Source: Phoronis australis (lineage: Eukaryota > Animalia > Phoronida). From it: a stretch of DNA of 48,514 nucleotides. Numbering within the stretch: the stretch's first letter is position 1; each line of letters begins with the position of its first letter. The stretch lies in contig NMRA01000325.1 in assembly GCA_002633005.1 (NCBI GenBank), positions 457,331-505,844 on the forward strand, given 5' to 3'. Of this stretch, positions 8,341 to 47,310 are shown one piece after another. The notes under the pieces were generated by a model. It saw nothing but the letters and a program-made list of their open reading frames with translations. It made no database searches and was not told the DNA's origin. A program made the translations under genes and the position numbers.

Positions 8341-11331
8341 TTAAGTAGTTGTGATTATACTTTTAAACAATTTGACGACAAGGCCAACAAACTCCGGAGA
8401 ATCATTTTGGACATCTTTCCAACAGTTGTAATCGGACACCTGGTTGAACTTGTGGTATTTCAGTGGTTGGGGAGGTTCACCTACCACGCTGATGCTGAGT
8501 AAATCTTCGTCCGGCTTCTTCATTGCATACTGCAAAGACGCTTCCACGAAATGCTTTGATTTTCTGGTCAACCGACCAGCGTCAGAAAAGACAAACAATA
8601 GATTTCTGCAGTCTTCCATTGCACCCAAAGAGTGGCTAAATTCGTATTCCCATGGAGGAATGTTATTAGAAATGATACAGGACAGTCCCAAATATTTGGT
8701 GATAATTTTATAAAAGAGGTGAAAAAGACAGTTGCCGTCAGATTCCTGACCAGTGACATAAATTTCATACCCATCGTTACTTTGAATATCTTTCATCCCA
8801 AACACAGTCTGATAAGCCCTCTGGAAGTATTCCCTGGCTATGGCTTCCTTCCCTTTTCTCAGATTTCCCTCAGCAGCCGTCACCGCAGCATCGATCAGAG
8901 TCGCTTTATTCTTAAGAACATGCTCTTTGTGAACAGTCGTCAGCAACATCACTAGCAGATTTACGGCTTCCTCATATTCTCCCTGAGACATAAGCAACCT
9001 GGCCTTATTCAAGTAAGCATCGGAATCGCTTGGATCAAGTTTTAAAACTTCATCAAGGTATTTTAGCGCAGGTGAACACTGTCCCAGTAATTCATGAAAG
9101 CGAGTAAGTTGCTTATGGCTTCTAGATTCTCTGGGATATTTCTCTGTTTCAGCCTCGAGAAGATCTTGCAAAGTTTGAGATGACGGGTGGGTGTAATGAA
9201 AAGGAAGCGACAGCAAGACAGCGTTCTCAACGGCAAAGAAAAACATTTGAATGGCGTCCTCTACAGTCTCTTTCTTTTTTCTTTCATCATCTTCTTCTTG
9301 TGACAATTCCACATAACAAAAGCCCCGTTGTTCATAACAGTTAATCTTGTTCATTAAGCTGCACGCATCAATATCTGACACCGCTTCAAAACACTTCATT
9401 GCATCTGCTGGCTTACTGAGCCGACGATATGTTATTCCCTTGTTGAAAAGCACGGGCACTGAAGTATGCTCACATAATTGACTTGCTTCTTCAAACCTTT
9501 CAAGAGCACGATTTAGTAACAAATTATTGGGATCACGTTCTTTTTTCAAATATTTCGGTGATTTAAGAACTGACGTTACCAATTTTTCGACATTAGAAAC
9601 CGGCTGGGGATTTTGAATATTTGAATAGCCAGTTCTTTTTATCGACAAATCACCCACTTTGATCGTCAATTTTTCTGTAGCGTCCGAAAGATCGTCCCCA
9701 TAACTGGAACCGCAACATCCAGAATCTAAAGACATGCAAGGAAGCTGTCTCAACAAACCCGCACCTTCGCGTGAATCACTTTGAGGCGAATTCCTATCTT
9801 GTGAAATCCTTTTCCCTTCTCTACTTGCAGCGTCCGAAAGATCCTCCCCATAACTGGAACTGCAATATGCAGAATCTAAAGACGCGAGAGGAAGCTGTCT
9901 AAACAAACCCGCACCTTCCCGTGAATCACTTTGAGGCGAATTCCTATCTTGTGAAACCCTTTTCCCTTCTCTACTTGCAGCGTCCGAAAGATCCTCCCCA
10001 TGACTGGAACTGCAATATGCAGAATCTAAAGACGCGAGAGGAAGCTGTCTAAACAAACCCGCACCTTCCGGTGAATTACTTTGAGGCGAATTCCTATCTT
10101 GTGAAACCCTTTTCCCTTCTCTACTTGCAGCGTCCGAAAGATCCTCCCCATGACTGGAACTGCAATATGCAGAATCTAAAGACGCGAGAGGAAGCTGTCT
10201 AAACAAAACCGCACCTTCCCGGGAATCACTTTGAGGCGAATTCCTGTCTTGTGAAACCCTTTTCTCTTCTCTACTTGCAAGCTGATCGAAAGAAAGCTTC
10301 TTTTTAACCATCCGGGCTCTCTGATTTTTGCTTCTTACCTCCACATTCCACTCATCCACGTCCACGAGGCCTAAATGCAAGCAATTGAATGTAGTTCGAT
10401 GTATTCTGTAAGACTCCTCTAAGTACTGTCTTGCTTTCTTTAAGTTTTGATGTTCACGTCTGCGGTAAAATCGTCCACATTCCTGCAAAACGGTACGATC
10501 ATGTGGAGCAAGTTTGATGGCTTTTTCCATGCAATATGCATCGTTTAACTTCGGTATGGATCTTTCTTTACAAATGCCCGATACACAATCTGTAGCCAAA
10601 TCATTCGCTTTCTTATACACGGATGGCATGCCGGAATACAACCACGTCATGGTGCCTATCTTTGTCCAAGCCTTTGCAGAACATGCTTCTTCAACATCGG
10701 GACGGTCAATAACTTCCGTAAGTGAACGGACACCTTTAATGAACGTCGTGCTTGCATCGAAATCTTTGTCGTCGATGTATGCTTCTGCATTGAGACACCT
10801 TTGTAGAACGACCCCATATCTATAGCTCCATTGCCATTTCCCAGGGCGAGCTGCCAGTACTTCTTCATACATCTTTATAGCCTGTGGATGATACTTTGGT
10901 CCAAGCTTTGAGTAGGAATAAGCTAGTTCTGCCTTTGCGTTAGTAACCTGTTCCGCGTAATTCTGTTTGCCCTGCATACTTTTGAGTTCGCTGATAGTTC
11001 TTTCTGCCTTTACCAAGTCTTCACTTTTGATAAGCATGTGCGCATAGTTAGCCCAGGCAACAATATTGTTTGGCTCAGCTGCCCGTACCTTCTTGTTTCT
11101 CTCCCTAGCGGAGTTTGTGTTTTCTGGACCACCCAGCTGCATTTCCAAAAAGGAGAGTAAATTTTCGTTCGCACTTTCATAGAATACTGATGGGTCATCT
11201 TCATCCTCGCTCAAAAGCTTTTTCTTAACCTTTTTCATTACCTTCACAGGACATCTGTCCAGGTGGAATGAACTTGGAAACTCTTTTAGATACGTTCGAA
11301 GTCTCTCCTTCAAAAGCGTCGTTGATTCCAT
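8341..11331 (-). CDS. TTC22/IFIT-like tetratricopeptide-repeat protein with internal 50-aa repeats and a C-terminal TIR-like domain (copy 1, 996 aa from the likely ATG)
   Basis: Open for 3 kb. TTC22-like motifs (FPSSFHLD, ENLLSFL, EPNNIVAWANYAH, AKAELAYSY, AKAWTKIG, CMEKAIKLAP) and TPR helices (ALKYLDEVLKLDPSDSDAYLNKARLLMSQGEYEEA). The C-terminus YEIYVTG...LGLSCIISNNIPP...GAMEDCRNLLFVFS...SKHFVE resembles a TIR domain. ATG placed at 11331 because it follows a TTTTTTAG|ATCAATA acceptor and matches the starts of the other two copies. Confidence 0.9.
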   Translation of the reverse strand: MESTTLLKERLRTYLKEFPSSFHLDRCPVKVMKKVKKKLLSEDEDDPSVFYESANENLLSFLEMQLGGPENTNSARERNKKVRAAEPNNIVAWANYAHMLIKSEDLVKAERTISELKSMQGKQNYAEQVTNAKAELAYSYSKLGPKYHPQAIKMYEEVLAARPGKWQWSYRYGVVLQRCLNAEAYIDDKDFDASTTFIKGVRSLTEVIDRPDVEEACSAKAWTKIGTMTWLYSGMPSVYKKANDLATDCVSGICKERSIPKLNDAYCMEKAIKLAPHDRTVLQECGRFYRRREHQNLKKARQYLEESYRIHRTTFNCLHLGLVDVDEWNVEVRSKNQRARMVKKKLSFDQLASREEKRVSQDRNSPQSDSREGAVLFRQLPLASLDSAYCSSSHGEDLSDAASREGKRVSQDRNSPQSNSPEGAGLFRQLPLASLDSAYCSSSHGEDLSDAASREGKRVSQDRNSPQSDSREGAGLFRQLPLASLDSAYCSSSYGEDLSDAASREGKRISQDRNSPQSDSREGAGLLRQLPCMSLDSGCCGSSYGDDLSDATEKLTIKVGDLSIKRTGYSNIQNPQPVSNVEKLVTSVLKSPKYLKKERDPNNLLLNRALERFEEASQLCEHTSVPVLFNKGITYRRLSKPADAMKCFEAVSDIDACSLMNKINCYEQRGFCYVELSQEEDDERKKKETVEDAIQMFFFAVENAVLLSLPFHYTHPSSQTLQDLLEAETEKYPRESRSHKQLTRFHELLGQCSPALKYLDEVLKLDPSDSDAYLNKARLLMSQGEYEEAVNLLVMLLTTVHKEHVLKNKATLIDAAVTAAEGNLRKGKEAIAREYFQRAYQTVFGMKDIQSNDGYEIYVTGQESDGNCLFHLFYKIITKYLGLSCIISNNIPPWEYEFSHSLGAMEDCRNLLFVFSDAGRLTRKSKHFVEASLQYAMKKPDEDLLSISVVGEPPQPLKYHKFNQVSDYNCWKDVQNDSPEFVGLVVKLFKSIITTT
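9680..10279 (-). repeat. In-frame coding tandem repeat, 4 x 150 bp (50 aa)
   Basis: TTGAGGCGAATTCC recurs at 9781, 9931, 10081 and 10231. The unit is SREGKRVSQDRNSPQSDSREGAGLFRQLPLASLDSAYCSSSHGEDLSDAA. Confidence 0.97.
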
Positions 11332-11338
11332 TATTGAT

Positions 11339-11505
11339 CTAAAAAAGTGAAAATTCTGAAGTAACATTCTGACCATGTTTTCAAGTAACGACATATACAC
11401 AACTTGCACGAGAGAAACAGCGAGAGAGAGAAGGAGTGAGGGGNNNNNNNNNNNNNGAGGGGGGAGGGAGGGAGGGAAGGAGGGAGGGAAAGAGAGAGAG
11501 AGATA
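11339..11505 (-). promoter_or_regulatory. 3' splice acceptor and upstream pyrimidine-rich intronic tract of copy 1
   Basis: Minus-strand AG at 11340-11339 preceded by TTTCACTTTTTT. A (CT)n/(CCCT)n tract spans 11410-11505 and contains a 13-N gap. Confidence 0.7.
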
Positions 11506-12429
11506 GAACGTTTATTGACGTATGTATACAATGAGTACACGCGCCCCCCAAAAAATTTTCAGGCGTCAGGGTTAAACCGTGGCAACCGACATACGCGTGG
11601 GACGGGGCAGTCGAGAAAAGAAAGACTGCTAAATGCGGATAACAGACAGAATTCCAGAGAACATTTAACAACTGTGTATCAGTGCACGGTTTACCTTTTG
11701 AGAACCCTGGCCAGGACACTGTTGTTGGGGTCTCCGCTTTCGCAGCACAGGTCAGCTAAATGCACTTGAAAACGAGCATGTATGTATATATTTCGAAAAA
11801 TTGAAAAAATATGATCCTCCCCTTCCGAGGGAAGTTGAGATCCCTACACAAAACATTCGTGCACAGCCCAGAAGTATCAGGACATTCCACCCAAACAACC
11901 AAAAATGTGAAAAATACAATAGAATTGACCGCCATCGAAAGGGTGGAATTTTGAAGAACGTGAAGACCGCTATTTGTTAATTACACAAAAGGACTATTTC
12001 CGATGGTTAGTTATAGAATAATGTTACTGTTTCCCTTAGTATCACAAAAAGAATAGTATATCTTTTGAAAATGGTTACTGTGAGTTGTTTATATGGAATT
12101 CCCAAATGTGAAAAGCACTGCTGTCGAGGCTACCATTGGGGTGACCGTGAACATGTCGAAGGTGTGTACTCAAATACTCGCAATAATAAACAAATATTGC
12201 AGCTTTTTTTAGCTCAAGTTCAACTCGTGAACAGTTATAGGTTCCTCGGAAATGAGCAAAAATATTGTGAATGCCCAATCTCCCATTTTCCTCCGGTTAC
12301 CCGTCAAAAATCTGTGAGCATGCCTGCGGAAAATGCTTATAACATTCCGTTTTGATCAACAAATTTGTTGATTCTGATTGACATGTTTGTGTATCTACGA
12401 AAACCGACAGATTAATAGATGATTTTTAG

Positions 12430-13060
12430 CAACTGCAAGCTAATCTTTTAAGAAATGATTACGATTCAGGAAATTAAGTGAAGCCTGAATATGGAAAAAC
12501 TCTATAATCCGATCCCCAAATAGTAAAAAGCACTTGGACGCTTTTTGCCTGTCTAAAATAATTCTTAAAGACATTGATGAAATTTGGACACTTCCCAAAA
12601 ATTTACTCACAATTCAAATGACATTAATGCATTGCTTTTTAACAAGATCTGTAATTGTTTGAACTCACTAACAGGTGATCAAAAAGGAATTAAGTCATTA
12701 AATCAAGGTAAACGCACTGCTCTTGGATTTGATTGCTGGTTTCTGATTTACATGTTTATGTATCTATGAAAATGGACTGATTGAGAGGTGATTCCTTGAC
12801 CGGTAGAAGCTAATTTTGAAAGACATGACAATGCCTCAATGAACTTAATTGCAGGCCGACATTGGGGAAATTCGATCTATCATCAGATCCCCAAATATAA
12901 AAGTACACTAAACGAGTTTTATCTATCTGAAATAAGTCTCAAGGAAATTGATGAATTTCGGACAGCTCTACAAATTGTCCCAAAATGTTCTCACAATTCA
13001 AATGGCAATAAATTGTTTATTGGCTTAGGAACTAGATTACTGGGTTTAAGTTTACAAACC
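12430..13060. repeat. Diverged ~370-bp tandem duplication
   Basis: AAGCTAAT...GATCCCCAAATA...TTGATGAA...CTCACAATTCAAATG occurs at ~12437-12625 and again at ~12807-13005. Confidence 0.6.
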
Positions 13061-20879: not shown

Positions 20880-21800
20880 AAGGTGACCACATTTGCGAAC
20901 AGAGTACAGTACCAGAAATTACGGGTAGTCTGTATTTTCCCAGTGTTGTGGGGCTCGCACGGTATTCAATAGGCCTCCTGAGGAGCTCTGGTTCTGACCT
21001 TAGCACTGGCCGTCTTCCAACCTGCAATAAGCATCACTGTCATCTTCGACACTGGGAATTTCCGCAGAAATGGCCCACCCGATGAAACGCCCATGCCCAC
21101 GGGCGTTTATTTGGTTTTACGACTTCGGGTTTTAAGTGTTTAGACATTGGGACGTTTATTCGGAAAATTTTAAGTGATGCAAATTGGTCCTGGGATACAT
21201 TGTGAGACAAAAGCGCAAGGTTTGAAGCAGTCTGTGATGAACGGGTCAAATACAGTTGAGCTTGTAACTCTTTTGAATGGGCTAATCTAGATTTTTCCAT
21301 CACAAATGACACATGACTTTGAGATTTGTCATTCTCAAATGTAACATATACTACAGATCCATAGCCGGAGTGAAGCATCTGAGAATATGTGTAGCTGCGT
21401 GGATACAATATTGCCAAAATGTGCTGGTTTGAAGCAACGATTAACATATAGATTTGACAGCTTGGACAGATTGCTTAACCGCTCGTTCCATAGAGTAGCT
21501 TGTTTACTGGGGGTATTAAACTTGGCTTTGCACAGGTCTTGCAATATGAGTTTCGCTGGCAAGATTACAGGTCCGACAAATCCTAAGGGGTCGTATACCG
21601 AGCTCATGACGTACAAAATGCCACGACGTGTAGGCGGCTGATCTCTGAGATCGATTTTATATCCAAAGCAGTCGTTTTCGATGTTCCACTCTATTCCCAA
21701 TGCACGCTCAAATTGAATGGTATCTAAGCACATATCTTTAACAGTAGGTGCCCTATCTGCCTCTGATATTTGATTAATAACAGCTCCTCCTGACTCAATA
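20880..21800 (-). mobile_element. BEL/Pao LTR retrotransposon pol fragment (Pao RT-connection/RNase H region)
   Basis: ERALGIEW...TRRGIL..MSSVYDPLGFVGPVILPAKLILQDLC...QLHIFSDAS, then after a frameshift GYGSVVYV...SFVMEKSRLA. Confidence 0.9.
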
Positions 21801-21806
21801 GGCATC

Positions 21807-23020
21807 GCTAATGGATCAGGATGGATACAAGAGGAAAACTTCCTTGACTACGTTCAGCATTTTGCCCGTCATGCAAAACCTTGTGAAGAAAAGCCTGTGC
21901 TTCTTGTCCTTGATAACCATATTTCTCGCGTCTATATACTCGCCATCGACTTTTGTAAGGAAAGCTACATTAACTGATATCCATTCCTCCACATTCATCA
22001 CACAAACTACAACCATTCGATCGACGAGTAGTTTATGGTCCGTCCATGTAAACAATAGATCCCCTGCATGGATGAGAAAGAACCTTTGGAAACCAATGAC
22101 AATATATGACACCCCAGCAATTGTAGGCGTCACTCTGCCACGAGCCATGTTACCATCAAATGTGATTAAGTCTTTCAGATGCACAGGCATCTGTCCGATC
22201 AATATCGGTATATCTTCACGGATTCTGACTTCTCTGCTTCTCAGCTAACAAAGAAACCAGCACCATCCACAACCTCAGCCTCTCAAGTTGTTTAGTCATC
22301 CAGTCATACAGCTGCAGAGTTTACCTCGCTACAATGAAGCTCCACAGTACAGCCATCCACAGCCGCCGACCACGTAAACTCTCAGTCATCCACTAGGTTC
22401 ACTGTCCGTCCCAATCAGCCACCCACCAGTTCCACAGTCGTACCCGACCAGCCATCCCCCAGTTCCACAGTCGTACCTGCTCAGCCATCCACAACCTCCA
22501 CAATCTTACCCAATCAGCCACCCACCAGTTCCACAGTCGTACCCGATCAGCCGTCCACCAGTTCCACATTCGTACCCGATCAGCCGTCCACCAGCTTCAC
22601 AGTCGAACCTGATAGCCATCTATCAGCTACACAGTCATGTCTGCTAAGTCTTCCAATAGCTCAACAAATCAGTCCATTTCGCCATCAACCAGGTACATGT
22701 GTGATTCTCCTAAGCTTAAGGCTTCTAAATGTTGCGCAAAACTCTTATTTAGTGCACATGCGGTCTTGCCAATACCTCGCGCAGAGAGAAAGGAACTTGA
22801 ACGAAAACCGAATAGGAGGAAGAGGAAAAGCGAAATCCTCACAGACACTCCTGTCAAAAACGTCCTGCTGTCGAAAAAAGCCAACACCAAAAGAACATGG
22901 CAAACGGGGAAAGGAAAAGCCAGCACAAAAGGAAAAGCTACCTCCAAAACAAAGAAAGGACGTCAGCAAAAGAAGACACGCAACGATTCTTCATCGGAGT
23001 ATTCAACAAATTCTGTATAA
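21807..23020 (+). mobile_element. 5'-truncated pogo/Tigger-like DDE_1 transposase pseudogene
   Basis: Frameshifted: ENFLDYVQHF..KPVLLVLDNHIS..IPPHSSHKLQPFDR..SNVIKSFRCTGICPIN, with a C-terminal RKRKSEILTDTP. A possible terminus TTGCCCCGGGCTCCCCCCA lies at ~24550-24570. Confidence 0.85.
22405..22640 (+). repeat. ~33-bp minisatellite inside the transposase linker
   Basis: Repeated CCAATCAGCCACCCACCAGTTCCACAGTCGTAC variants, about 7 units. Confidence 0.85.
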
Positions 23021-23133
23021 CAGTTTAGAAGGTAGAAACAATAAAGTTCTTGGTCCGAATTTCTATTGTTTTCCTTTAGTACAAAACTCAAGTACATTAC
23101 ACAAAACCAAGTCGGATATCAAGATAATTTGAA

Positions 23134-23911
23134 TATAATTTATAAATTATATTCAATGTCTTTTAAAACTACTTATGATTTCAAGTTATGTACACTGCAG
23201 TTTAAACTATTACATAGAATACTTGTAACCAACTCTTTTCTTAGAAAAATTAACCTGGTGGACTCTGATGTATGTACTTTCTGTCATTCACAAAGTGAAA
23301 CAGTGGATCACATCTTTTTCGAATGCAATAATGTAAAAACATTGATAGGAGAATTACGCATTTGGGTGTTGTTGGTAAAAGGTATAAATATGGTTATTGA
23401 CAAAAAAACAATGTTTTTTGGGATGCCCATAAGTAATGAAAATAAAGTTTTAAATTGGATACTTTTGCAATTAAAACATTTTATTTACCTATCCAGGTGT
23501 AAAAAAGTAATCCCCAGTTTCTGTCAGTTCCTTAAGATATTAGAAAGAGAATTTTATATTCAAAGAAGGATTTTATTAAATAATGGTAATTTAGATGAAT
23601 ACCATGTAACCTGGAGAAACTGGTTAACCATAACTTTTGCCTGACAACATCCTACTAAGAGTAGGTTGCGGGGGGGCGGGTGCGTGTGTATGTTAAGGGT
23701 GAGAATGGCTTGATTTTTTTTCTTACATATCTGTATTTCTGTTCTGTATACCAAATTGTGATACTTGACGATAATTTGTTGCAACTAATGTACTTGTATA
23801 CTGTATTGTTTATTGTGTCGTGTAAATTGTAAATACCCATGCTAGAGAAAATAAAAATACTAAAAAAAAAATACCCATGCTAGAGAAAATAAAAATACTA
23901 AAAAAAAAAAA
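23134..23911 (+). mobile_element. 5'-truncated L1/Tx1-like LINE with poly(A) tail and 13-bp TSD
   Basis: zf-RVT motif QFKLLHRILVTN...CTFC...ETVDHIFFEC, with the frame open to 23644. A-rich tail. TSD AAGATAATTTGAA at 23121-23133 and 23912-23924. Confidence 0.92.
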
Positions 23912-24051: not shown

Positions 24052-24053
<2 letters not shown>

Positions 24054-26851: not shown

Positions 26852-29004
26852 CGGATTTTGTGGTCTTCGTACACTATGGAAGCTAACGCCTCTGCATTTC
26901 GCCTGCGTAGCCGAACAACCGGCCACACAGCAACCGACCATGATTAGCAGACGACGTACTTGCCGGAAATTACACCAGATAATTGAGCCAGGTGTCGCCA
27001 GTGAGTAATGACGTAAAGGCTTGTGCGTAAGACCACAGATTTCGTCCATTGAAAGTAAACGGAGTTGGCGGTCCATGTACTATAGTCTATGTATACATAG
27101 AGGTATATGCATGAAAGTAGTATCTAATACAAGTATTCCAATATTTAAATATGCTATTACGAAGATATAAAAACATAAACCTGTACAGATATATGTATGG
27201 AAATCAGAAGCAACAATATTGATAAGCGATACATAAAACATTGCTAACGTTGCTTAAGAGGAAGATTGAGAACAAGGTCAAAGTTAGGACTACCATTCAA
27301 TAATGAAACTTTAGTAGGGATATTATTACAAGAATTGAGAGCATTTACAATTAATTGGTTTTCATTGAGTGGACGAAAGAGTGAGTCTCTCAGGTATTCG
27401 ATGAGGGGACATTTCGTTCCGTGAAAACGTTTTCAGGTGATTTGTTTTCGGATACATTTGACGTTTTTACATTGTTGCAACATACGGTAGCCCAACAGTC
27501 CACGTGATTCGGCTTAAAAAAGCGATACTTTTAAACACTTAAAAGTGTTTATTGTCGCTTTCAATAATAGGGATCACCATCGTTCGTTCGTTTTTCTCGC
27601 ATTGACAGTGAACATCTGTTTGTTTCCGGGCGTAACAGTGGCGGTCTTCGTTCCTAAGCAACTAGGGGCTGCTGTCACTCGGTCACCTGATAATCAAGTG
27701 TTGTGATTTTACTTGGCTGCGGGTGCTCCTTTTCTTGAACATTTGGTAGTTGTCAAAACCACTGCATACACACTACACTTTTTCGTATACGACTTTTCGT
27801 ATGCTAAAAATCGGTGTAGACATATGCTCCACTTAAAATTTTGCTGATGGCCTGACCCATACCCAGATGTGCACAATTTTGGTTTTACGGAATTTATGAG
27901 CCGAGTTCACGAGACGAAATCGGGAAGGGTTTAAGTCATCTCAAGAAAAATTCCAGAGACACGTTAACTGCCACAAACTCGCCAGGATGCATGAAATTTG
28001 CTGTGTTTGGCCACAAAAACAAACAATTCTCTAAACAGGAGGTTTTTTTCCTCCTCCCCGCGTCCCACCGTTCGGCTCTATGCGCCTCGGATTTGCGCGA
28101 ATCCTGAACTTCCTTACTGAAAACATAGATCCTCCTCTGCCCCCAAGAAAAACATGCCCTGGTGATTATCTTAGAGTTGGAAGCCCCGTCTGAATACATC
28201 GGTCGTGAACAAGATATTGCCAACGTACCTCGCACCGACAGCACCAGTCTCTGCTCTACTGGTGTTTCCCAGCTATGGCCAAAACACGCCATACTTACCC
28301 CGATTGATGGCAAGACAGGTGTTATGCTAGTTAATACAATTCGACATTGCGAATTTCAAAAACTGAAAACTCCCTAAAACAATTATTATATCCCTATTAT
28401 TAACTAGTCAACAAGAGCTTGCTATTTGGTTTTGCGCAATTGTTTTGTATGAAAAAGCATGGGCCTAAATTGGACATAGACGCTGGTTAACATACACTGC
28501 GCATGTGTCTAACTACGCGAATACACTAAATACTCTGCCACTTCACAGTCCATTGTACAATACAACCCGGAAATCTACACAAGAAAATATCAAATTACCA
28601 GATTAAGACGCGGTCGCAAAGCCAAATTACCCATCTGAGACTGCGAAGTCAAAACACCCAGCCGAGTTGGCACTACAAGGCCTTCCTATATAAGAGTTCT
28701 CGCGAGTCCAATGACTGATTTTTGGGTAAACGGCCAAAACGCACAAGATTCGCATAGACTTCAATTTACAACAACGGACTCTTTGTCATAGGAAGGGGTA
28801 CACGAGCACTCCAAATGAGTTGCAACAAAAGCAAAGAAGGCCTTACACGACAAGTGCTCTTTTGGTGGGAAAAAGTGATTTGTAAACAACAGCTACAAAT
28901 ACGTGGCGACGGTGCTGGGTTCCGGGACAGATTTCGAAACGAATTAAAATTTACATATCAATGGCAGTAGTATCAACACCGAAAAGTCATCGCACGGATT
29001 TTCA

Positions 29005-29388
29005 GTTAACAAGTGACGATTATACCTTTGAACAAAGTGTCGACAATAACAACAAACACCGGTGATTCTTTTTGGACATCTCTCCAAGTGCTGTATTTTG
29101 ATAATCGATTCATCTTGACATGATTGTGGAAGACCACCTACTACGCTGATGCTGAATAAAGCATCGTCTGACCTTTGCTGTACACAGTGCACAGCAGCTT
29201 CAAAGAAGTGCTAAGATTTCCTGGTCAACGCATCCGCGTCAGAATGTACAAACAAGAAATTTCTGCTGTCTTTCATAGCACCAGAAGAGCAGCTAATTTC
29301 GTAGTCCCCTGGAGGAATGTCATGAGAACTGATACAGGACAGCCCGAAATATTTGGCGATAAATTTCGTACTCGTCAGGTCTTTGAAT
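29005..29388 (-). pseudogene. Degenerate partial duplicate of the TIR-like C-terminus of copy 2
   Basis: AKYFGLSCISSHDIPPGDYEISCSSGAMKDSRNFLFVHSDADALTRKS then stop/frameshift, followed by DDALFSISVVG. Collinear with 29550-29997. Confidence 0.9.
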
Positions 29389-29549
29389 GTCCCCAAAGTG
29401 CCAATTGACTTTTTCCTAACCTGACAGTAACATGTATGGGGTCCCTTGCCCCTGTGCATTTTTATATAACCAGCACCAGCAATTATTCAGTACACTTATC
29501 AACACGCAACATCTCGAATCACCACAAGGATTGTCGGCGTATCACTAGT

Positions 29550-32045
29550 TTAAGAAGTTTTGATTATACTTTTAAACAAACTGACGACAAGGTCAACAAA
29601 CTCTGGTGAGTCTTTTTGGACATCTTTCCAACAGCTGTAATCGGACACCTGGTTGAACCTGTGGGATTTCAGTAGTTGGGGAGGATTTCCTACCACGCTG
29701 ATGCTGAGTAAATCATCGACCGGCCTCTGCAGTGCACAGTGCAAAGAAGCTTCCACGAAATGCTTTGATTTTCTGGTCAACAAGCCAGCGTCAGAAAAGA
29801 CAAACAAGAAATTTCTGCTGCCTTCCATAGCACAAGAAGAGTAGCTGATTTCGTACTCCTCTGGAGGTATGTTGTTAGAACTGATACAAGACAGTCCGAA
29901 ATATTTGGTGATAATTTCAGAAAAGTGGTGAAATAGACAGTTGTCGTCGGATTCGTGACCAGTGACATAAATTTCATACTCGTCAGGTCTTTGAATATTT
30001 TTCATCCAAAACACAATCTGATAAGCTCTCTGGAAGTATTCCCTGGCTATGTCTTCCTTCCCTTTTCTCAGATTTTCCTCAGCAGCCATCACAGCAGCAT
30101 TGACCAGAATCTCTTTTTTTTCAAGAACATGCTCTTTGTGAACAGTTGTCAGTAACATCATTAGCAGATTTACGGCTTCCTCATATTCTCTCTGTGACAT
30201 AAGCAACCTGGCCTTTTCCAAGTAAGCATTGGAATCGTGTGGATCAAGCTTTAAAATTTCATCAAGGTACTCTAACGCGCGTGAATGCTGCCCGAGCAAT
30301 TGATAAAGCCGAGAAAGCTGCTTTTGTGATTCAGCGTGCCTCGGGTTTTCTGTCAGTTTTGATTGGAGAAGGTCTTGCAAACTGAGAGATGATGGACATT
30401 GGTAATCAAAAGGAAGGCTTAGTTGCACGGCGTTCTCAATGGCAAAGAAGAACATAACTATGGCATTCTCAACAGCTTCGGTTTTTTTCGTGGCATTCTC
30501 TTCTTGTCTCGCCATCTCCACATAGCAGTAACCCTGCTGCTCGTAGCAGTTGACCTTCATAAACAAACTACAAGTTTCAATCTCCAACAGCATTTTAAAA
30601 CACTGTAAAGCTTCTGCTGGACAGTTGAGCCTGCGATGTACCAACCCTTTGTGGTATTGCGCTTGTGCTGAAGTATGTTCACACAATTCACTTGCTTCCG
30701 CTAACATCTTAATTGCATGATTCAACAATGCGTTTGAAGGATCATATTCTTTTTTCAAATACTTTGGAGACCTGAGAACGTACGTAATGAACGTTTCTAC
30801 GTCATTCAGTTGGGAATACTGGGAATCCATTTCAGGGTTTCTTTTCACCGACAAATCACCCATTCTGCTCGTTAAATCTGCTGTAGCGCTAGAAAATTCA
30901 CAACCAAGATGGGATCCAGAATGATATCCAGAGTCGCTGGATGGGACCGATTCTGGGGTATACCTTTCAGGGGAAAGCCTTTGCTCCGCTGGACGACTGA
31001 ACTGATCAAAAGACAGTTTCTTTTTAACCGCTTCCCTTCTCTTCTTTTTGTTCAACGCCTCCTCGTTCCATATGTCTACGTCTAGGAGACCCAGGTGAAG
31101 AGAGTTGAATGTTGTTGGATGTATTGAGTAAGACTTCTCTAGGTATTGTCGTGCCTTCTCTAAGTTTCGGTTGTTTTTGCCTCTTCTGTAGAAGCGTCCA
31201 CATTCCTGCAGAACAGTGGGATCATCTGGGGCACGTTTAATGGCCTCTTGCATGCAGAAGCTAGTATCTACGACTCTTTCACTGGAAATGTTCAAAAGGC
31301 ACGCTTGAGCCGACTCATCCGCATTCTTGTACACTGAGGGCACGCCGGCATACGAAAAGATCATGGAACCAATTTTGGTCCAAGCCTTTGCAGCCGTTGC
31401 TTTATCAGCATCGGGACAGTCAATAACTTCTCTGAGAACCCCTACTCCTTTAATGAATGTATCGCTAGCATCAAAATGCTTATCGTCGATGTAAGATTCA
31501 GCATTCAGACATCTTTGTAGAACAACCCCGTATCTGTATTTCCATTGCCATTGTCCAGGATTGGTCGCCAACACTTGTTCGTATATTTTTTTGGCCTGGC
31601 CATGATACCTCGGCCCAAGTTTTGAATAAGAATACGCTAGTTCCGCATTCGCACTTGCAACCTGTTCTGTGTAATTTTGCTCGGTCTTGAGACGTTTAAG
31701 CTCATCAATTATTTTTTTAGCTTTCGCCAAATCCTCACTTCTTACGAGCATGTTCGCATAGTTAGCCAATGCGACAATATTTGCTGGTTCAGATTCTCTA
31801 ACTTTCTGGTTGCGTTCTGCAGCTGAAGTTAAGTTTTTTTGCCCACCGAGTTGCATTTCTAAAAATGACAGTAAATTTTCATCAGCATTTTCATTAAATG
31901 GTACTGGGTCCTCTTCACGCTGGCTCGTGATCGTTTTCTTAACCTTTAGCATCCGTTTTGCTGGACATCTTTCCAGGAGGAATGAATTTGGAAACTCTTC
32001 AAGATCTTTTAGGAGTTTCTTTTTCTGAACGTCCATTGAATCCAT
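29550..32045 (-). CDS. TTC22/IFIT-like TPR protein with C-terminal TIR-like domain (copy 2, 831 aa)
   Basis: Intact 2.5-kb ORF collinear with copy 1 (e.g. AELAYSYSKLGP, WxYRYGVVLQRCLNAE, RKSKHFVEASL). Has a single linker unit with DSGYHS. The acceptor TTTTTTTACAG|ATCAACC precedes the ATG. Confidence 0.92.
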   Translation of the reverse strand: MDSMDVQKKKLLKDLEEFPNSFLLERCPAKRMLKVKKTITSQREEDPVPFNENADENLLSFLEMQLGGQKNLTSAAERNQKVRESEPANIVALANYANMLVRSEDLAKAKKIIDELKRLKTEQNYTEQVASANAELAYSYSKLGPRYHGQAKKIYEQVLATNPGQWQWKYRYGVVLQRCLNAESYIDDKHFDASDTFIKGVGVLREVIDCPDADKATAAKAWTKIGSMIFSYAGVPSVYKNADESAQACLLNISSERVVDTSFCMQEAIKRAPDDPTVLQECGRFYRRGKNNRNLEKARQYLEKSYSIHPTTFNSLHLGLLDVDIWNEEALNKKKRREAVKKKLSFDQFSRPAEQRLSPERYTPESVPSSDSGYHSGSHLGCEFSSATADLTSRMGDLSVKRNPEMDSQYSQLNDVETFITYVLRSPKYLKKEYDPSNALLNHAIKMLAEASELCEHTSAQAQYHKGLVHRRLNCPAEALQCFKMLLEIETCSLFMKVNCYEQQGYCYVEMARQEENATKKTEAVENAIVMFFFAIENAVQLSLPFDYQCPSSLSLQDLLQSKLTENPRHAESQKQLSRLYQLLGQHSRALEYLDEILKLDPHDSNAYLEKARLLMSQREYEEAVNLLMMLLTTVHKEHVLEKKEILVNAAVMAAEENLRKGKEDIAREYFQRAYQIVFWMKNIQRPDEYEIYVTGHESDDNCLFHHFSEIITKYFGLSCISSNNIPPEEYEISYSSCAMEGSRNFLFVFSDAGLLTRKSKHFVEASLHCALQRPVDDLLSISVVGNPPQLLKSHRFNQVSDYSCWKDVQKDSPEFVDLVVSLFKSIIKTS

Positions 32046-35067: not shown

Positions 35068-37551
35068 AACTAGAAAGATTATTGTCACGTCGTGACAATA
35101 ACGGACTCTGCGCGTGCGTATTACTGGAATTATTATGGGAAGTTACTGACAGCAACCCGTTTACCAATATAAAAAGGAATTCTTTAAAATTGTAGGAGAA
35201 ATTACATATTAATTTTTTGATGACCTTCCACTAATTGACCTCTTCCCGTGCATTATGAGCCCCGATGAAGGAGTAATTGTTAACTCGATTAAAAGTGTGG
35301 TTAATGCTAATAATCACAGATGTTTTACTTTAAGCACTTCAGAATACAAGATGAATGAAGTGGTCAAACTTTCAGAAGAAAAATGCACCTAATGACTCCA
35401 TGGGTGCACCAAATGACCTGAAAATTTAGAATTCAAACTCAATCGCACTTAGTAAACAGTTATGTAATTCTGAAGTCTCTAACTAATTCAAAATTTTAGT
35501 TTGCACTCAATGACCTTTGACCTATTTTTTCTTATTGGTTAGGCCTATTGCGAAGTAAAGTAGAGTATTCACTTGGCATTTTGACTTACACCAGTGTGCT
35601 GAAATTCAAAAGAATTCCTTGAAAAACGTAAGAGATATAAGATTTTGAACGTTACATGACCTTTGCACTAATTGACCTCATCTAGTGCATTTTAAGCATC
35701 TTTAGGAGAATTATTGCAAAGCCCATGGAAAATGTGTTTAACGCTGAGAATCACAGTTGTCTAACGGTTAACACATCAGAAAATTTGCTGATTGAAAAGG
35801 TCAAATTTTCAGAAGAAAAATGCACCTAATGACCCCATGTTGGCACTAAATGACCTGAAACTTTGGATTCCGATTTGATTTACCTGTGGCAATCAGACCT
35901 GTCAATTTGAAATGTCTAGCTCAAAATTTTAGTTTGCACGTAATGACCTTTGACCTATTTCACCTAATTGGATGACCCGATTACTTAGAAAAGTCATTTT
36001 TTAAATTGTCATGTTGACATATACCTGTGCACTGAATTTGAAAAAGATAGCTTTAAAACTGAAGGAGTAGCATTTTGAAAATTAAATGACCTTTGCACCA
36101 AACGACCTCTTCCAGTGCAATATAGAAAATGATTATATAACCAATCAAAATTTATATACTGTCAAAAGCCATATGCTGAATTTAAAGACCGTACATGCAC
36201 CCAATTTGGAGTTATTAAGCCTCAAAGTTGGTCGGAAGAAGAATAAGAATAAGAAGAACTAGAAAGATTATTGTCACGGCGTGACAATAATGGACTGCGC
36301 GTGGGTATTACTGGAATTGTTTGGGAAGTTACTGACAGCAACCAATGTGAAAAGGAATTCGTTAAAATTTTAGGAGAAATTACATGTTAATATTTTGATG
36401 ACCTTTCCGCTAATTGTTCTCTTCCGGTGCATTATGAAACCCGACCAGGGAATAATTGTAAACACAATTTAAAGTGTGGTAACTGCTAAGAATCACAAAT
36501 GTTTTACTTTAAGCACTTCAGAATACAAGATGAATGAAGTGGTCAAACTTTCAGAAGAAAAATACACCTAATGAACCCTTGGGTGCACCAAATGACCTGA
36601 AAATTTAGAATTCAAACTCAATTGCAATTAGTGAACAGATATGTAATTTTGAAGTCTCTAGCTCAAAATTTTAGTTTGTACTCAATGACCTTTGACCTAT
36701 TTTTTCTGATTGGTCAGGCCTATTGCGAAGTAAAGTAGTTGATTTAATTGGCATGTTGACTTACACCAGTGCGCTGAAATTGAAAAGAATTCCTTGAAAA
36801 ACAAAAGAGATATAACATTTTGGACGTTAGATGACCTTTGCACTAATTGACTCTATCCGGTGCATTATAAGCGTTTTTAGGTGAATTATTGCAAAGCCCC
36901 TGAAAAATGTGTTTAATGCTGAGAATCACAGTTGTTGACACATCAGAATACTTGGTGAATGAAAAGGTCAAATTTTCAGAAGAAAAATGCACCTAATGAC
37001 CCCATGTTTGCACTAAATGACCTGAAACTTTAGATTCCGAATTGAATTACCTGTGCCAATCAAACCTGTGACTTTGAAGTGTCTAGCTCAAAATTTTAGT
37101 TTGCACCTAATGACCTTTGACCAGTTTAACCTGATTGGATGACCCAATTACTTAGAAAAGAATTTTTTTAAATTGCCTCATTGATTTATACCTGTGTACC
37201 GAATTTAAAAAGAATAGCTTTTAAAATAAAGGAGTAGCATTTTGAAAATTACATGACCTTTGCACCAAATGACCTCTTCCGGTGCATTATGGAATATTAT
37301 TATATAACGAGTCAAATTTTATGTACTGTCAAAACTAATATGCTGAATTTAAAGACTGTACCTGCACCCAATTTGGAGTTATTAAGCCTCAAAGTTGGTC
37401 GGAAGAAGAATAAGAATAAGACTAAGATTAAAATTGAAGAAAAACCCAAGAACAACAGTACTCTGCGCTTACACGCGCAGAGTAATAAGAAGAATAAAAT
37501 TGAAGAAAACCCAGGAACAACAGTACTCTGCGCTTACACGCGCAGAGTAAT
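35068..37551 (+). mobile_element. Two ~1.2-kb Helentron-like non-autonomous elements (HINE/DINE-1 style), order A then B
   Basis: Units start AACTAGAAAGATTATTGTCACG at 35068 and 36257. They contain internal sub-repeats (TGACCTTTGACC), an (AAGAAT)n microsatellite, and the terminal hairpin TACTCTGCGC-TTACAC-GCGCAGAGTA twice (37459-37484, 37524-37549). Confidence 0.75.
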
Positions 37552-40800: not shown

Positions 40801-41084
40801 TAAAATTCATGTTTCACGGTATGGGGACTTGTACTACGTGTTTTTACTGGTCATGATGCGTACGGCGTCGTCATGAGCAAAATCGGCAAACATTCACCGA
40901 CAAGGCATACTTTAGAAGATTGTTTAGCTGCTTACACATGACTTTGTAATGAAACTGTTGGCATACACTCAATGGAAGAATAGTCATTGAGTGTGACAAA
41001 TTACTTTAATAGGGTGCCTGTACTGCCAATGCTTAAGAGCTCTCACTGATTGTTTACACAATGATAAACTTTGAGTGTCAATTT

Positions 41085-43641
41085 TTACTCTGCGCGTGTA
41101 AGCGCAGAGTACTGTTGTTCCTGGGTTTTCTTCAATTTTATTCTTATTCTTATTCTTATTACTCTGCGCGTGTAAGCGCGGAGTACTGTTGTTCCTGGGT
41201 TTTCTTCAATTTTATTCTTCTTATTCTTCATATTCTTATTACTCTGCGCGTGTAAGCGCAGAGTACTGTTGTTCCTGGGTTTTCTTCAATTTTATTCTTA
41301 TGACTCTGCGCGTGTAAGCGCACAGTACTGTTGTTCCTGGGTTTTCTTCAATTTTATTCTTATTCTTCTTATTCTTCCTCCGACCAACTTTGAGGCTTGA
41401 TAACCCCAAATTGGGTGCAGGTACGGTCTTTATATTCAGCATATGACTTTTGACTGACAGAATATAAATTTTGATTGGTTATACAATCGTATTCCATATT
41501 GCACCGGAAGAGGTCGCTTGGTGCAAAGGTCATATAATTTTCAAAATGGTACTCCTTCAGTTTTAAAGCTATCTTTTTCACACAGGTATAAGTCAACATG
41601 ACAGTTTAAAAAATTACTTTTCTAAGTAATCGGGTCATCCAATCAGGTGAAATAGGTCAAAGGTCATTAGGTGCAAACTAAAATTTTAAGCTAGACACTT
41701 CAACTTGACAAGTCTGATTGCCACAGGTAAATCAAATCGGAATCCAAAGTTTCAGGTCATTTAGTGCAAACATGGGGTCATTAGGCGCATTTTTCGTCTG
41801 AAAATTTGACCTTTTCAATCAGCAAGTATTCTGATGTGTCAACTGTTAGACAACTGTGATTCTCAGCGTTAAACACATTTCCCATGGGCTTTGCAATGAT
41901 TCTTCTAAAGATGCTTAAAATGCACCGGATAAGGTCAATTAGTGCAAAGGTCATGTAACGTTCAAAATGTTATATCTCTTACGTTTTTCAAGGAATTCTT
42001 TTCAATTTCAGCACACTGGTGTAAATCAACATGCCAATTGAATACCCTACTTTACTTCGCAATAGCCCTAACCAATCAGAAAAAATAGGTCAAAGGTCAT
42101 TGAGTGCAAACTAAAATTTTGAGCTAGAGACTTCAAAATTACATTTCTGTTTACTAAGTGCTATTGAGTTTGAATTCTAAATTTTCAGGTCATTTGGTGC
42201 ACCCATGGGGTCATTAGGTGCATTTTTCTTCTGAAAGTTTGACCAATTCATTCATCTTGTATTCTGAAGTGCTTAAAGTAAAACATCTAATTTTTAGCAT
42301 TAACCACACTTTTAATCGAGTTAACAATTACTCCCTCATCGGGGCTCATAATGTACCGGAAGAGGTCAATTAGTGGAAGGTCATCAAAAATTTAATATGT
42401 AATTTCTCCTACAATTTGAAAGAATTCCACTTTCATATTGGTAAACGGGTTGCTGTCAGTAACTTCCCATAATAATTCCAGTAATACGCACGCGCAGAGT
42501 CCGTTATTGTCACGCCGTGACAATAATCTTTCTAGTTCTTATTCTTCTTCCGACCAACTTTGAGGCTTAATAACTCCAAATTGGGTGCAGGTACAGTCTT
42601 TAAATTGAGCAGATGAGTTTTGACAGTACATAAATTTTGATTCGTTATATAATCGTATTCTATAATGCGCCGGAAGAGGTCATTTGGTGCAGAGGTCATG
42701 TAATACTTAAAATGCTACTCCTTCTTTATTTTAAAAGCTATTCATTTTAAATTCGGTACGCAGGTATAAGTCAATCAGGCAATTTGAAAATTACTTTTCT
42801 AAGTAATTGGGTCATCCAATCAGGTTAAACAGGTCAAAGGTCATTAGGTGCAATCTAAAATTTTGAGCTAGACACTTCAACTTCACAGGTCTGATTGGCA
42901 CAGGTAATTCAATTCGAAATCTAAAGTTTCAGGTCATTTAGTGCAAACATGGGGTTATTAGGTGCATTTTTCTTCAGAGAATTTGACCTTTTCAATCAGC
43001 AAGTATTCTGATGTGTCAACCGTTAGACAACTGTGATTCTCAGCATTAAACACATTTTTCATGGGCTTTGCAATAATTCTCCTAAAGACGTTTATAATGC
43101 ACCGGATAGAGTTAATTAGTGCAAAGGTCATCTAACATGCCAATTGAATACCCTACTTTACTTCGCAATAGGCCTAACCAATCAGAAAAAATAGGTCAAA
43201 GGTCATTGAGTGCAAACTAAATTTTGAGGTAGAGACTTCAAAATTACATATCTGTTTACTAAGTGCGATTGAGTTTGAATTCTAAATTTTCAGGTCATTT
43301 GGTGCACCCATGGGGTCATTAGGTGCATTTTTCTTCTGAAAGTTTGACCAATTAATTCATTATGTATTCTGAAGTGCTTAAAGTAAAACATCTTTGATTC
43401 TTATCATTAACCACATTTTAAATCGAGTTAACAATTATTCCCTCGTCGGGGTTCATAATGCACCGGAAGAGGTCAATTAGTGGAAAGGTCATCAAAATAT
43501 TAATATGTTATATCTCTTACATTTTTTTAAATTCCTTTTCATATTGGTAAACGGGTTGCTGTCAGTAACTTCCCAAAACAATTCCAGTAATACGCACGCA
43601 CAGTCCATTGTTGTCACGCCGTGACAATAATCTTTCTAGTT
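41085..43641 (-). mobile_element. Two further copies of the same Helentron-like element, order B then A, with four terminal hairpin modules
   Basis: Reverse-complement starts at 43641 and 42537. Hairpin modules at ~41085, 41159, 41239 and 41302, separated by (TTATTC)n. Confidence 0.75.
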
Positions 43642-44879
43642 TACATTTGTTCTTTTTTTGGCTAAATTTTTGTGTTTGAGTACCACCATATAACCATAGA
43701 CAACGCGCATGAGAAGTATACTTGTAATTTGTAGTTTAAGTTATGTGATATTGTATGACACCTACTCTCAAAATATCTGTACGGACTCGTCATGAGCAAC
43801 TGTATACGGTTTCGTATTGAGCTGATTGTGTTTTCAAGTTCTTGTTGCCGTCTAATTATGCATCAATACCAACAGAAAGCAACCCATTCCTATACATATA
43901 AACCAGTATCTTGATAAAAATGCCCTATGACTCTGCAACCGGATTCCCCATCAAACCTTGCTGTCCGATTTACTTCACAGACTATATCTACCAGAAATAA
44001 TTGAGATTTGTTGGTTTCTACGACCTAAACCATGTAAATTCCCTAGCCGACTATTGCGACGACTTCGAACTGGAGGAAATAGTATAAGTACAACAGACCT
44101 CAAGGTTTGTCGCGAGAATGACTCATTACACCGATTACCACACTTACCATTGTAGAACCGTCTATATCTTCTTGAATTTCTCCAATTCCAGTTCACGTCC
44201 CCTCTTAGTGGGCCTACCTCATTCAATCTTAGTGACAAAATGCCACATAGTTTGTGTATACATTCATTCAACTTCAAGCGCAGATGGGGTGGGGATTTGT
44301 TAAAACATTTGTCCCTAATGAGCTACAGTTGTAGCAAATTTCTCAGTTCCTCTACATTCTCATTTTCCTGTTTAAGTCTTTGTTGTCCGTCTTTCAAATT
44401 TGGTTCATCTTCGTAGCCGAACAAGTCAATCTCTCCACCAGACTTATCCACTTTTGATGTAGGCAGTTGCTTAACGTTTGTCATGGCAAAGTTTATTTTC
44501 GATTCTAATGGGTCTCCGCCAGTTTTCTGATATGCTTGAACGCTCACATGAATCTCAAAATCAGTTTCCGTGGAAAAGTTTGAATCCAATACGCCAAAAC
44601 TTTACAGTGTCGTTCGAATACCTCATTGATAGGGTGTTGTTGAGGGTAACAATTCTGCCACGTCTAAATACAGTAAGAATGTTATATTGTCTAAGGGGAA
44701 AGTGACATCTGCATCATGATTAAACTTCAGTGACCCAGGTGTCTGACGTCCCTTAATTCTTTTCAAAGTATCGATCACGCATGGTGTGACATCACATCTT
44801 TCTTTTATTGCTCTGTATTCTCGTCCAAAATCTGTCTCTATATCCCGTTCACACTGTTTTCGCTCTGTGTATTCTTCAG

Positions 44880-45141
44880 CTTTGGGGGGGTCTCGGGGGG
44901 CTCGGAGGAGCCCCCCAATTTGGCGCATTGGGCAAAAAGGTCCGCCTCAGCGAAACGAAAAGTCCGAGTAAACGAGACAAAGGTCCACAAAGTCCACAGG
45001 AATTTGGTCGGCGCGGATGCACAATCGGCAGGCCTGAACCTAGTGGTCCCGTTTTTTTTAATCCTCGTTGATTTGTTTCAGTAAAAAGCCCGCATAACGA
45101 AGAATTTGAGCCCCCCTATATTTTAGGATTGGTGCGCGCAT
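44880..45141 (-). mobile_element. ~260-bp interspersed repeat, copy c
   Basis: TGGGCAAAAAGGTCCGC and GAGCCCCCCTAT...TGGTGCGCGCAT are reverse complements of blocks in copies a and b. Confidence 0.65.
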
Positions 45142-45240
45142 CGCTCTCCCTCTCCCTCCCTCTTACTAGTTGTGTTTATGTCGTTACTTAAAAACTTGGT
45201 CAGAATATTGCTTCAGATGTTTCACCCTTTTAGATCAATA

Positions 45241-47310
45241 ATGGAACCAATGAAGGTTTTGAAGGAGAGACTTCTAACGAATCTCAAAGAGTTTCCAAAC
45301 TCAGTCTGCCTGGACAGATGTCCTGTGAAGGTAATGAAAAATGTTAAGAAAAAGCTGTTGAGCGAGGATGAAGATGACCCACTATAAATATTCTATGAAA
45401 ATGCTAACGAAAATTTACCCTCCCTTTTGGAAATGCAGCTCCGCTAGGGATAGAAACAAAAAGGTACGGGAAGCTGAGTCAAAAATATGGTTGCCTGGGC
45501 TAACTATGCGAACATGCTTATCAAAAGTGAAAACCTGGGAAAGGCAGAAAAAAATATTAGCGAACTCAAGCGTATGGTGAGCAAACAGAATTATGCGGAA
45601 CAGGTAACTAACGCAAAGGCATAACTAGCTTATTCCTACTCAAAGCTTGGACCAAGGTATCACCCACACCCTATAAATATGTATGGTGAAGTATTGGCAG
45701 CACATCCTGAGAAATGGCAATGGAGCTATAGATATGGGGTCGTTCTACAAAGGTGTCTCAATGCAGAAGCATACATCGACGACAAAGATTTCGATGCTAG
45801 CAGTATGTCTATTGAAGGAGTCCGGTCTCTCATGAAAGTTATCGACTGTCCCGATGTTGAACAAGCATGTTTGGCAAAGACTTGGAGAAAGATAGGCACC
45901 ATGACGTGGTTGTATTCCGGCATACCATCTGTGTACAAAAAACCGAACGATCTGGCTACAGATTGTGTTTCGGACATTTGTAAAGAAAAATCCATACCGG
46001 AGTTAAATGATGCATATTGCATGGAAAAAGACATCGAACTAGCCCCAGATGACCGTACCGTTCTGCAGGAATGTGGACGATTTTACCACAGACGTGAACA
46101 TCAAAACTTAAAGAAAGCAAGACAGTACTTAGAGGAGTCTTACAGAATACATCGGACTACATTCAATTGCTTGCATTTAGGCCTCGTGGACGTGGATGAG
46201 TGGAATGTGGAGGTAAGGACCAAAAATCAGTGAACCTGGATGATTAAAAAGAAACTTTCTTTCGATCAGCCTGCAAGTAGAGAAGAGAAAAAGGGTTTCA
46301 CAAATCGTGCTCTTGAAAGGTTTGAAGAAGCAAGTCAATAGCGGAGTTGCAACGCCGCCATATTGGAAATGGGTCAGAATGTTGCATTGTGGTTAAGCTG
46401 GTAAACAAGTACGNAGTGGAATGTGGAGGTAAGGACCAAAAATCAGTGAACCTGGATGATTAAAAAGAAACTTTCTTTCGATCAGCCTGCTAGTAGAGAA
46501 GAGAAAAAGGGTTTCACAAATCGTGCTCTTGAAAGGTTTGAAGAAGCAAGTCAATTATGTGAGCGTACTTCAGTGCCTGCGCTCTTCAACAAGGGAATAA
46601 CATATCGTCGGCTCAATAAGCCAGTAGATGCAATGAAGTGTTTTGAAGCGGTGTTAGATATTCATAGGTGCAACTTAATGAACAAGATTAACTGTTATGA
46701 ACAACAGGGCTTCTGTTATGTGAAATTGTCACAAGAAGAAAATGATGAAGAAAAAAAAGAGATTGAGGAAGACGCCATTGTAATGTTTTTCTTTGCCGTT
46801 GAGTACGCTGTCTATCTTTCTGTCGCTTCCTTTTCGTTAAACCTACCCATCATGTTATACTTTGCAAGACCTTCTCGAGGCTAAAACAGAGAAATATCCC
46901 AGAGAATGTACTAGAGGCCATAAGCAATTTACTCGCCTGGATCAATTACTCGGACAGTATGCACGTGCGCTGAAATACTTTGATGAAGTTACATGTATAA
47001 ATTTGATCCAAGCGATTTCGATGCTTATTTGGATAAGGCCATTTTGCATATGTCAAAAGGAGAATACCAGGAAGTCGTAAACCTGCTAATGATGTTGTTG
47101 CCTACTGTTCTCATAGAGTGTGTCCTTAAGATCAAACAGATTCTGATCGACGCTGCGGTAATGGTTGCTGAGCGAAATCTGAAAAAGGGAAGGAAAGCAT
47201 AGCTAAGGGATACTTCCAGAGAGCTTATAAGGCTGTGTTTGAGGTGGAGGTTATTCTAAGACCTGACGCGTATGACATTTATCTCACTGGCCAAGAATCT
47301 GATGAAAACA
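45241..47310 (+). pseudogene. Inverted pseudogene of the TPR-TIR family, closest to copy 1
   Basis: High similarity to copy 1, including the upstream intron (TTTTAG|ATCAATA ATG). Lesions: stops at 45385, 45622 and 46231; a ~23-bp deletion at ~45440; ~740 bp of linker missing; several frameshifts; truncated just after YDIYLTGQESDEN. Confidence 0.93.

Follow-up and report, generated by a model that had tools for sequence, protein, structure and literature searches.

An IFIT-type clamp joined to a TIR domain in two Phoronis australis genes: candidate one-piece cytosolic RNA sensors

Introduction

IFIT genes are described as having arisen with jawed vertebrates and interferon, with invertebrates and lamprey said to lack them, and as having a small first exon followed by a single exon with nearly the whole open reading frame (ORF) (PMC3688568). 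The IFIT5 protein moves about a pivot hinge when RNA is bound (PMC9677429). Here, a stretch of 48,514 nucleotides from the phoronid Phoronis australis was analysed (GenBank assembly GCA_002633005.1, contig NMRA01000325.1, positions 457,331 to 505,844), which is called the window. Its DNA is AT-rich and of animal type, contains assembly gaps and relics of transposons, and holds two intact genes, A and B. It is close to certain that the proteins they encode have an IFIT-type clamp followed by a TIR domain.

Proteins that combine TIR and TPR have been named before. A "TIR-TPR" gene class of the Pacific oyster resembles A and B in joining TIR and TPR in an invertebrate, a comparison by name only; it appears in a figure legend, and the available text gives it neither an IFIT link nor a function (PMC4346834). 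The class is named without detail in PMC9334734, the accessible part of PMC7075850 mentions TIR-TPR for bacteria only, and the excerpts of PMC6321704 and PMC6723221 add nothing on IFIT. A 2026 review deals, in the sections at hand, with vertebrate IFIT homologues only (PMC13197388). The literature search, which left subscription journals mostly outside, found no paper on IFIT-TIR proteins in the texts it reached; the ecTIR-DC catalogue, which covers invertebrate TIR proteins and is cited in PMC6321704, may list the family, and members may also be among the oyster gene lists.

The IFIT-type clamp

The two genes and the parts of the clamp in B are as follows:

8341..11331, minus strand: gene A, IFIT-TIR protein, intact single ORF of 996 amino acids (aa)
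29550..32045, minus strand: gene B, IFIT-TIR protein, intact single ORF of 831 aa
30999..32045, minus strand: B residues 1-349, start of the clamp up to the first pivot helix, holding K142, R178, R284 and R287
30006..30785, minus strand: B residues 421-680, rest of the clamp (to about 617) and further helices toward the TIR domain

Proteins A and B are 64% identical, and both have Pfam TPR matches above cut-off. The original prediction, made from the letters of the window alone, had seen two intact paralogues, and both minus-strand ORFs were found. The three N-terminal motifs it named are also present, as FPSSFHL, NIVAWANYAH and AELAY in A and FPNSFLL, NIVALANYAN and AELAY in B; these presumably match TTC22, as that prediction stated. 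In addition, it had described an architecture of TPR, Ser-rich linker, TPR and alpha/beta domain. The linker and the C-terminal domain were borne out, whereas the two TPR domains gave way to a single IFIT clamp.

This clamp was recognised in a structure model of B built from an alignment of 83 sequences (predicted local confidence score, pLDDT, 88.1; predicted template-modelling score, pTM, 0.84); an earlier model from two sequences only, with a pLDDT of 38, was set aside. Residues 7-617 superpose on the whole of the IFIT5-RNA structure 4hot (Z 24.4, root-mean-square deviation (rmsd) 4.2, 450/476 residues). The top 11 rows of the structure ranking are IFIT1 or IFIT5, and the top five Foldseek hits of the model are IFIT5. 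Among solved structures the clamp is much nearer to IFITs (Z 22-24) than to housekeeping TPR proteins, grouping with which the prediction had set against itself; the best non-IFIT structure reaches Z 19.4. Consistent with this, the best natural sequences that the family profile finds in the PDB are IFIT1 (E 1.9e-33) and IFIT5 (E 3.6e-31). The alignment to IFIT1 is collinear, breaking and then resuming at chain position 317. In the model, both TPR blocks form the predicted halves of one IFIT clamp (subdomains I-III with the pivot), and two separate TPR domains were rejected in favour of one clamp with an insertion on the strength of the superposition and the collinear IFIT1 alignment. As a separate observation, the model lies closer to RNA-bound IFIT5 (rmsd 4.2-4.3) than to unbound IFIT5 (5.5-5.8), which may be prediction bias only.

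Lysine or arginine occurs in at least 55 of the 83 rows at 14 of 831 columns. The column of IFIT5 K257, which we take to be an RNA contact, is basic in B and in 65/83 rows. Conservation of basic residues is highest at B R287 (76/83), R178 (75/83) and K142 (72/83), which correspond to IFIT5 R260, R186 and K150, and mutations of these IFIT5 residues reduce RNA binding (PMC9677429, Table 5). Opposite IFIT1 R38 and Q42, B has Thr38 and Gln42, and A has Lys and Glu.

A and B are like IFIT5 and IFIT1 (4hot, 5w5h) in the whole-chain fold over B residues 7-617, the collinear sequence and the basic positions K150, R186, K257 and R260, and also in a near-whole ORF in one exon (here presumed) and a tandem cluster with pseudogenes. 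They differ in having about 18-20% identity to these proteins, a disordered pivot-loop insertion of 70-240 aa, extra helices, a C-terminal TIR domain and, in B, replacements of R253, Y250 and Q288. IFITs are TPR-only chains of about 450-490 aa; A (996 aa) and B (831 aa) carry the insertion and the TIR domain as well and are therefore classed as IFIT-like, not IFIT.

The TIR domain

The C-terminal domain of about 140 aa has five beta strands and five helices (beta5/alpha5) in the B model and lies at these positions:

8350..8775, minus strand: TIR domain of A, scoring 33.0 bits against a C-terminal profile from which A and B were left out
29559..29984, minus strand: TIR fold of B, residues 688-829, BB-loop Pro728 kept, Phe763 at the catalytic Glu site

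Residues 688-829 of B superpose on the TIR domains of IL-1RAcPb (Z 12.5, rmsd 2.9, 131 aligned), TIRAP (Z 11.4), SARM1 (Z 11.3) and TIR-STING (Z 10.8). The profile made without A and B gives 33.0 bits to A and 45.6 bits to B, against at most 6.1 bits in 1000 shuffles and two reversals. When an 18-sequence C-terminal profile was compared with the PDB, 46 of the 47 matches at E<=10 were TIR proteins, the best being TIR-STING (1e-9) and others being TLR, TIRAP and MyD88. The flavodoxin-like TIR fold anticipated for this domain thus stands.

The domain of B alone has no sequence match in the PDB. With a cut-off of E<=1, Pfam TIR_2 matches 9 of 18 C-terminal parts of the family, with no match for B, and the best reaches 8.1e-8; at E<=0.001 it matches 1 of 25 relatives searched at full length. 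By sequence, then, the predicted TIR domains of A and B are recognisable only via the family. Box 1 of B reads YEIYVT and box 2 NNIPPE, and the family mostly has D-V/I-x-I-L and DxxPG. At the BB-loop position proline is the commonest residue (33/79), and glycine follows in 47/79.

The column of the catalytic glutamate (WSKFE in TIR-STING, WCQYE in TLR) holds Phe763 in B and Glu in 0/79 family members, the register being taken from the profile alignment, not from residue-level superposition. Because this glutamate is absent, the TIR domain is probably a scaffold and not an NAD-cleaving enzyme (NADase), and an NADase effector was rejected on the same ground. The original prediction of a sensor-effector fusion therefore holds for the IFIT-like clamp and the TIR fold, whereas its "effector" would be a scaffold.

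A and B share the TIR fold and the BB-loop proline with IL-1RAcP, TIRAP, MyD88 and oyster TIR-STING, and they are further like TIR-STING in that it is an invertebrate sensor of a nucleic-acid pathway with a fused TIR domain. Unlike these animal proteins, they lack a membrane anchor or death domain, their box 2 is degenerate and the alpha-C Glu of TIR-STING is replaced by Phe. By analogy, they might work as an IFIT joined to a TIR domain of the TIRAP or MyD88 type.

The family and its distribution

When 1.84 billion representatives were searched in full with HMMER, 150 proteins were listed. The N-terminal part is matched by 117 of them, and 81 of the 117 match the C-terminal part as well (the profiles having been built from many of the rows counted, with 6/81 outside the alignment); a further 31 are unrelated TPR proteins and 2 match the C-terminal part only. 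No vertebrate IFIT or TTC22 sequence was among the 150. Both parts occur together in molluscs, hemichordates, lancelets and lamprey. Of 30 proteins that were looked up, nearly all are uncharacterised; those with a named source come from gastropods, bivalves, two hemichordates, lancelets and lamprey, and two carry the database names IFIT5 or IFIT5-like. An Atlas search with the lamprey protein reached a cluster rich in echinoderms, of whose members 91% carry TIR_2. Word-index homology searches that started from B or from the A/B alignment returned no relatives, and one that started from N-terminal relatives found members in lamprey, lancelet and snail and no vertebrate IFIT or TTC22. In trees holding IFIT-TIR relatives only, one of them made by a quick method, A and B group together as sisters; their long branch lies apart from the mollusc expansions and next to deuterostome members, with weak support (approximate likelihood-ratio test, SH-aLRT, 85-88).

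In Atlas, TTC22 clusters and IFIT clusters lie near the N-terminal part of one relative (0.95 and 0.96). By language-model features TTC22 is thus near the N-terminal part of the family (0.95); unlike A and B, the TTC22 clusters are about 500 aa long and lack a TIR family.

Two members show unusual forms. A Batillaria protein (P0004, 1941 aa) has two complete IFIT-TIR units in tandem, which may be a real doubling or neighbours merged in the gene model. In lamprey (P0157-P0164, P0172, P0110, P0130) a full IFIT-TIR gene is present whose annotation includes short isoforms, alongside paralogues showing no TIR domain.

The pivot-loop linker

The B model is disordered only at residues 356-411, within a linker that is predicted to be an insertion between the two pivot helices of the clamp (pivot loop). 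Across the family the linker spans 4 to 434 residues. Its features in B and A are:

30786..30998, minus strand: Ser-rich, mostly disordered insertion, B residues 350-420, pLDDT<50 at 356-411
30918..30935, minus strand: DSGYHS, beta-TrCP-type phosphodegron-like motif (B 371-376), at pLDDT<50
9679..10279, minus strand: tandem array in the A linker, four repeats of 150 bp (50 aa) each, with the degron-like variants DSAYCS (three times) and DSGCCG

The motif DSGxx[ST] occurs in the linkers of 10/83 members, against a mean of 0.82 and a maximum of 6 in 1000 shuffles, and is absent from the 60,732 residues outside the linkers. Eight permuted or respaced control motifs occur 0-3 times each. In all ten linkers the fourth residue is hydrophobic (DSGΦxS), a form that would be a beta-TrCP degron as in IkB-alpha. 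The carriers are scattered over the tree; when the DSA variant is included, there are 12 rows and 9 changes. The copy number of the A repeats is not backed by RNA reads, depth being zero at 9965-10129.

Expression, gene structure and evolution of the locus

RNA data came from three raw runs labelled as the same species, of which 18-19% each was sampled and for which conditions are not given. Genes A and B are transcribed at a low level, with sense-strand read depths of 0-4 for A and 0-2.8 for B; many of these reads are 90-99% alike, and alleles or other paralogues may contribute. First mates lie almost exclusively on the plus strand, which fits minus-strand transcripts in the usual stranded libraries. 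The ratio of nonsynonymous to synonymous substitution (dN/dS) between A and B is 0.28 over 830 codons, and the two genes are under purifying selection.

In A, B and C, a broken copy described below, the ATG stands at the same distance behind a pyrimidine run and AG. Because this acceptor-like ttttttAG, 7 nt upstream, is common to all three, the 996-aa start of A was preferred to an in-frame ATG at 11394 that would give 1017 aa. Sense reads end at the acceptor-like site upstream of the A and B ATG, and among the raw reads of the three runs no splice joint rose above the listing threshold at either 5' end. The shared signal suggests a small exon upstream of A and B, as in IFIT genes.

No 19-residue hydropathy window exceeds 1.61 in A or B, in keeping with the earlier remark that no transmembrane segment was visible, and hydropathy supports a cytosolic location for the predicted proteins. 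An Rfam search gave no match. Patterns like interferon-stimulated response elements (16) and kB sites (5) are spread across the window; they were counted without a control and are given no weight here.

Two broken copies and a conversion tract complete the cluster:

45241..47309, plus strand: pseudogene C, copy of A, 85-88% DNA identity to A, with stops and frameshifts
29012..29409, minus strand: relic D, broken TIR-only duplicate directly downstream of B
29450..30270 (B side) and about 8240-9050 (A side), minus strand: gene-conversion tract covering the last helices, the TIR domain and about 100 bp past the stop

The first frame of pseudogene C contains 6 stops. C also lacks the entire linker, the missing stretch corresponding to A 9515-10259, and breaks off about 14 residues into the TIR domain (near B residue 702), so nearly all of that domain is gone. 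It had been credited with the full architecture, which only A and B possess. An assembly artefact was rejected as the cause of the linker deletion, since the joint is present in a contig from run X1, which may itself be where this DNA came from. Within C, a near-perfect 141-bp duplication (46199-46339 and 46415-46555) flanks a single N at 46414 and is probably a contig-join artefact. Three perfect 35-bp repeats (47333-47439) lie exactly at the breakpoint of C.

Relic D is a fourth copy that the original prediction had overlooked. Sense-strand reads run on from B across D, which probably lies inside the 3' untranslated region of B. Between A and B, DNA identity is 58-77% before the conversion tract and 81-91% within it, with a step at about B residue 595 and high values beyond the stop; dS is 0.23 in the TIR domain and 0.83-1.27 elsewhere. 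In a three-way comparison, A is closer to B within the tract than to its own copy C. From the identity step, the low dS and the pattern with C, it follows that A and B exchanged their 3' (TIR) ends by gene conversion while the sensor ends diverged. With two intact copies, two broken copies and gene conversion, the birth-and-death evolution proposed for the locus is borne out, and its duplication, decay and conversion are reminiscent of immune clusters.

Proposed mechanism and alternatives

The RNA ligand, the TIR scaffolding, the use of the degron and an immune role are what we infer for A and B. We give about an even chance to the proposal that they are one-piece cytosolic sensors. Here, the clamp would hold foreign single-stranded RNA, the putative ligand, by its 5' end. 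Clustering of the TIR domains would follow, and these would bring in a TIR adaptor, leading to immune signalling. After signalling, a kinase and the beta-TrCP ubiquitin ligase would remove the sensor through the DSGΦxS motif of the pivot loop, ending the signal.

Several observations weigh against this proposal. In B, Q280, T277, E281 and H317 stand in place of IFIT5 R253, Y250, Y254 and Q288, and the mutation R253M weakens RNA binding by IFIT5 about 30-fold (PMC9677429, Table 5). Because these four residues are not kept, the ligand of the clamp may be other than 5'-triphosphate RNA. Both proteins are net acidic (B has 105 K+R and 116 D+E). Their TIR domains are degenerate, with NNIPPE/W in box 2 in place of RDxxPG, and Pfam gives no match at E<=10 for the C-terminal domain of either protein taken alone. 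Among the 117 relatives with the N-terminal part, 36 show no TIR domain (many are short or partial), so the domain is not essential family-wide; nor is the strict degron-like motif, which 73/83 members lack, and the A repeats hold degron-like variants only. Expression of A and B is low, in runs without stated conditions.

A and B could instead be IFIT-like restriction factors that sequester foreign RNA ends, with a degenerate TIR domain that only oligomerises or, as a decoy, dampens Toll/MyD88 signalling. The same clamp evidence applies, box 2 is eroded in both proteins, TIR-less relatives exist, including the lamprey paralogues and short isoforms, and vertebrate IFITs work without a TIR domain and can inhibit signalling (PMC13197388). 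We consider this unlikely, however, as the TIR domain is retained by 81/117 relatives with the N-terminal part (most of which helped to build the profile) and the commonest residue at the BB-loop position is Pro (33/79), with Gly next to it in 47/79. Alternatively, A and B could act outside pathogen sensing as TIR scaffolds or adaptors, with a clamp for protein or cellular RNA and a closer relation to the poorly known TTC22. This would fit the nearness of TTC22 and IFIT clusters alike (0.95 and 0.96), the loss of several triphosphate-contact residues and the presence of reads in three possibly unchallenged RNA runs. It too seems improbable, since conserved basic residues occupy IFIT RNA-contact positions, and lineage-specific expansions with 20-30% identity between relatives suit immune over housekeeping genes. 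An RNA-activated NADase, like SARM1 or bacterial TPR-TIR defence proteins, could draw on the match to the SARM1 fold (Z 11.3) and on a Glu two residues past the usual site in A, B and 22/79 members. This is very improbable: Phe763 stands where TIR-STING and TLR have their Glu, no member has Glu there (0/79) in the profile-alignment register, and the Trp-Cys motif is absent.

Returning to the sensor proposal, a wider and more tentative version, which we regard as possible and lean against, is that IFIT-TIR proteins are unrecognised receptors for RNA ends, cytosolic and bilaterian-wide, which signal by way of the TIR domain they carry and are switched off by a pivot degron, vertebrate IFITs being TIR-less descendants that are now interferon-induced effectors. 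A whole IFIT clamp with conserved RNA-contact residues, joined to a TIR domain and occurring in molluscs, hemichordates, lancelets and lamprey, would move the origin of the fold back to early bilaterians, and the family would be a concrete candidate for viral RNA-end detection in invertebrates without interferon. The value lies in the family more than in the locus, and some members already carry IFIT5-like database names. What the locus adds is a seemingly dead catalytic site, a degron-like motif in the pivot loop and a converted TIR end.

Other features of the window

Between B and C, two facing arrays of 425-1190-bp units (35068-37551 and 41082-43641) are arranged as one large inverted repeat (87.5% over about 1.9 kb). 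Sub-repeats of 62-80 bp lie at its inner ends, and the whole looks like a foldback or composite non-coding transposon. A broken Pao/BEL retrotransposon relic lies at 21043-21847 on the minus strand (Pfam Peptidase_A17), and the 3' end of an element of the long interspersed (LINE) type at 23045-23641 on the plus strand (Pfam zf-RVT). A frame beginning MVGCCVAGCS (26855-27079, minus strand) runs into an N gap and has no Pfam match; it presumably resembles the start of a THAP zinc finger. At 22382-22636 there is a 33-bp tandem array of 7.8 copies with a Pro/Ser/Thr-rich frame that has no Pfam match. Downstream of A, very high-copy short repeats (6935-7000 and 7190-7343, contig depth >10,000) are transcribed on both strands.

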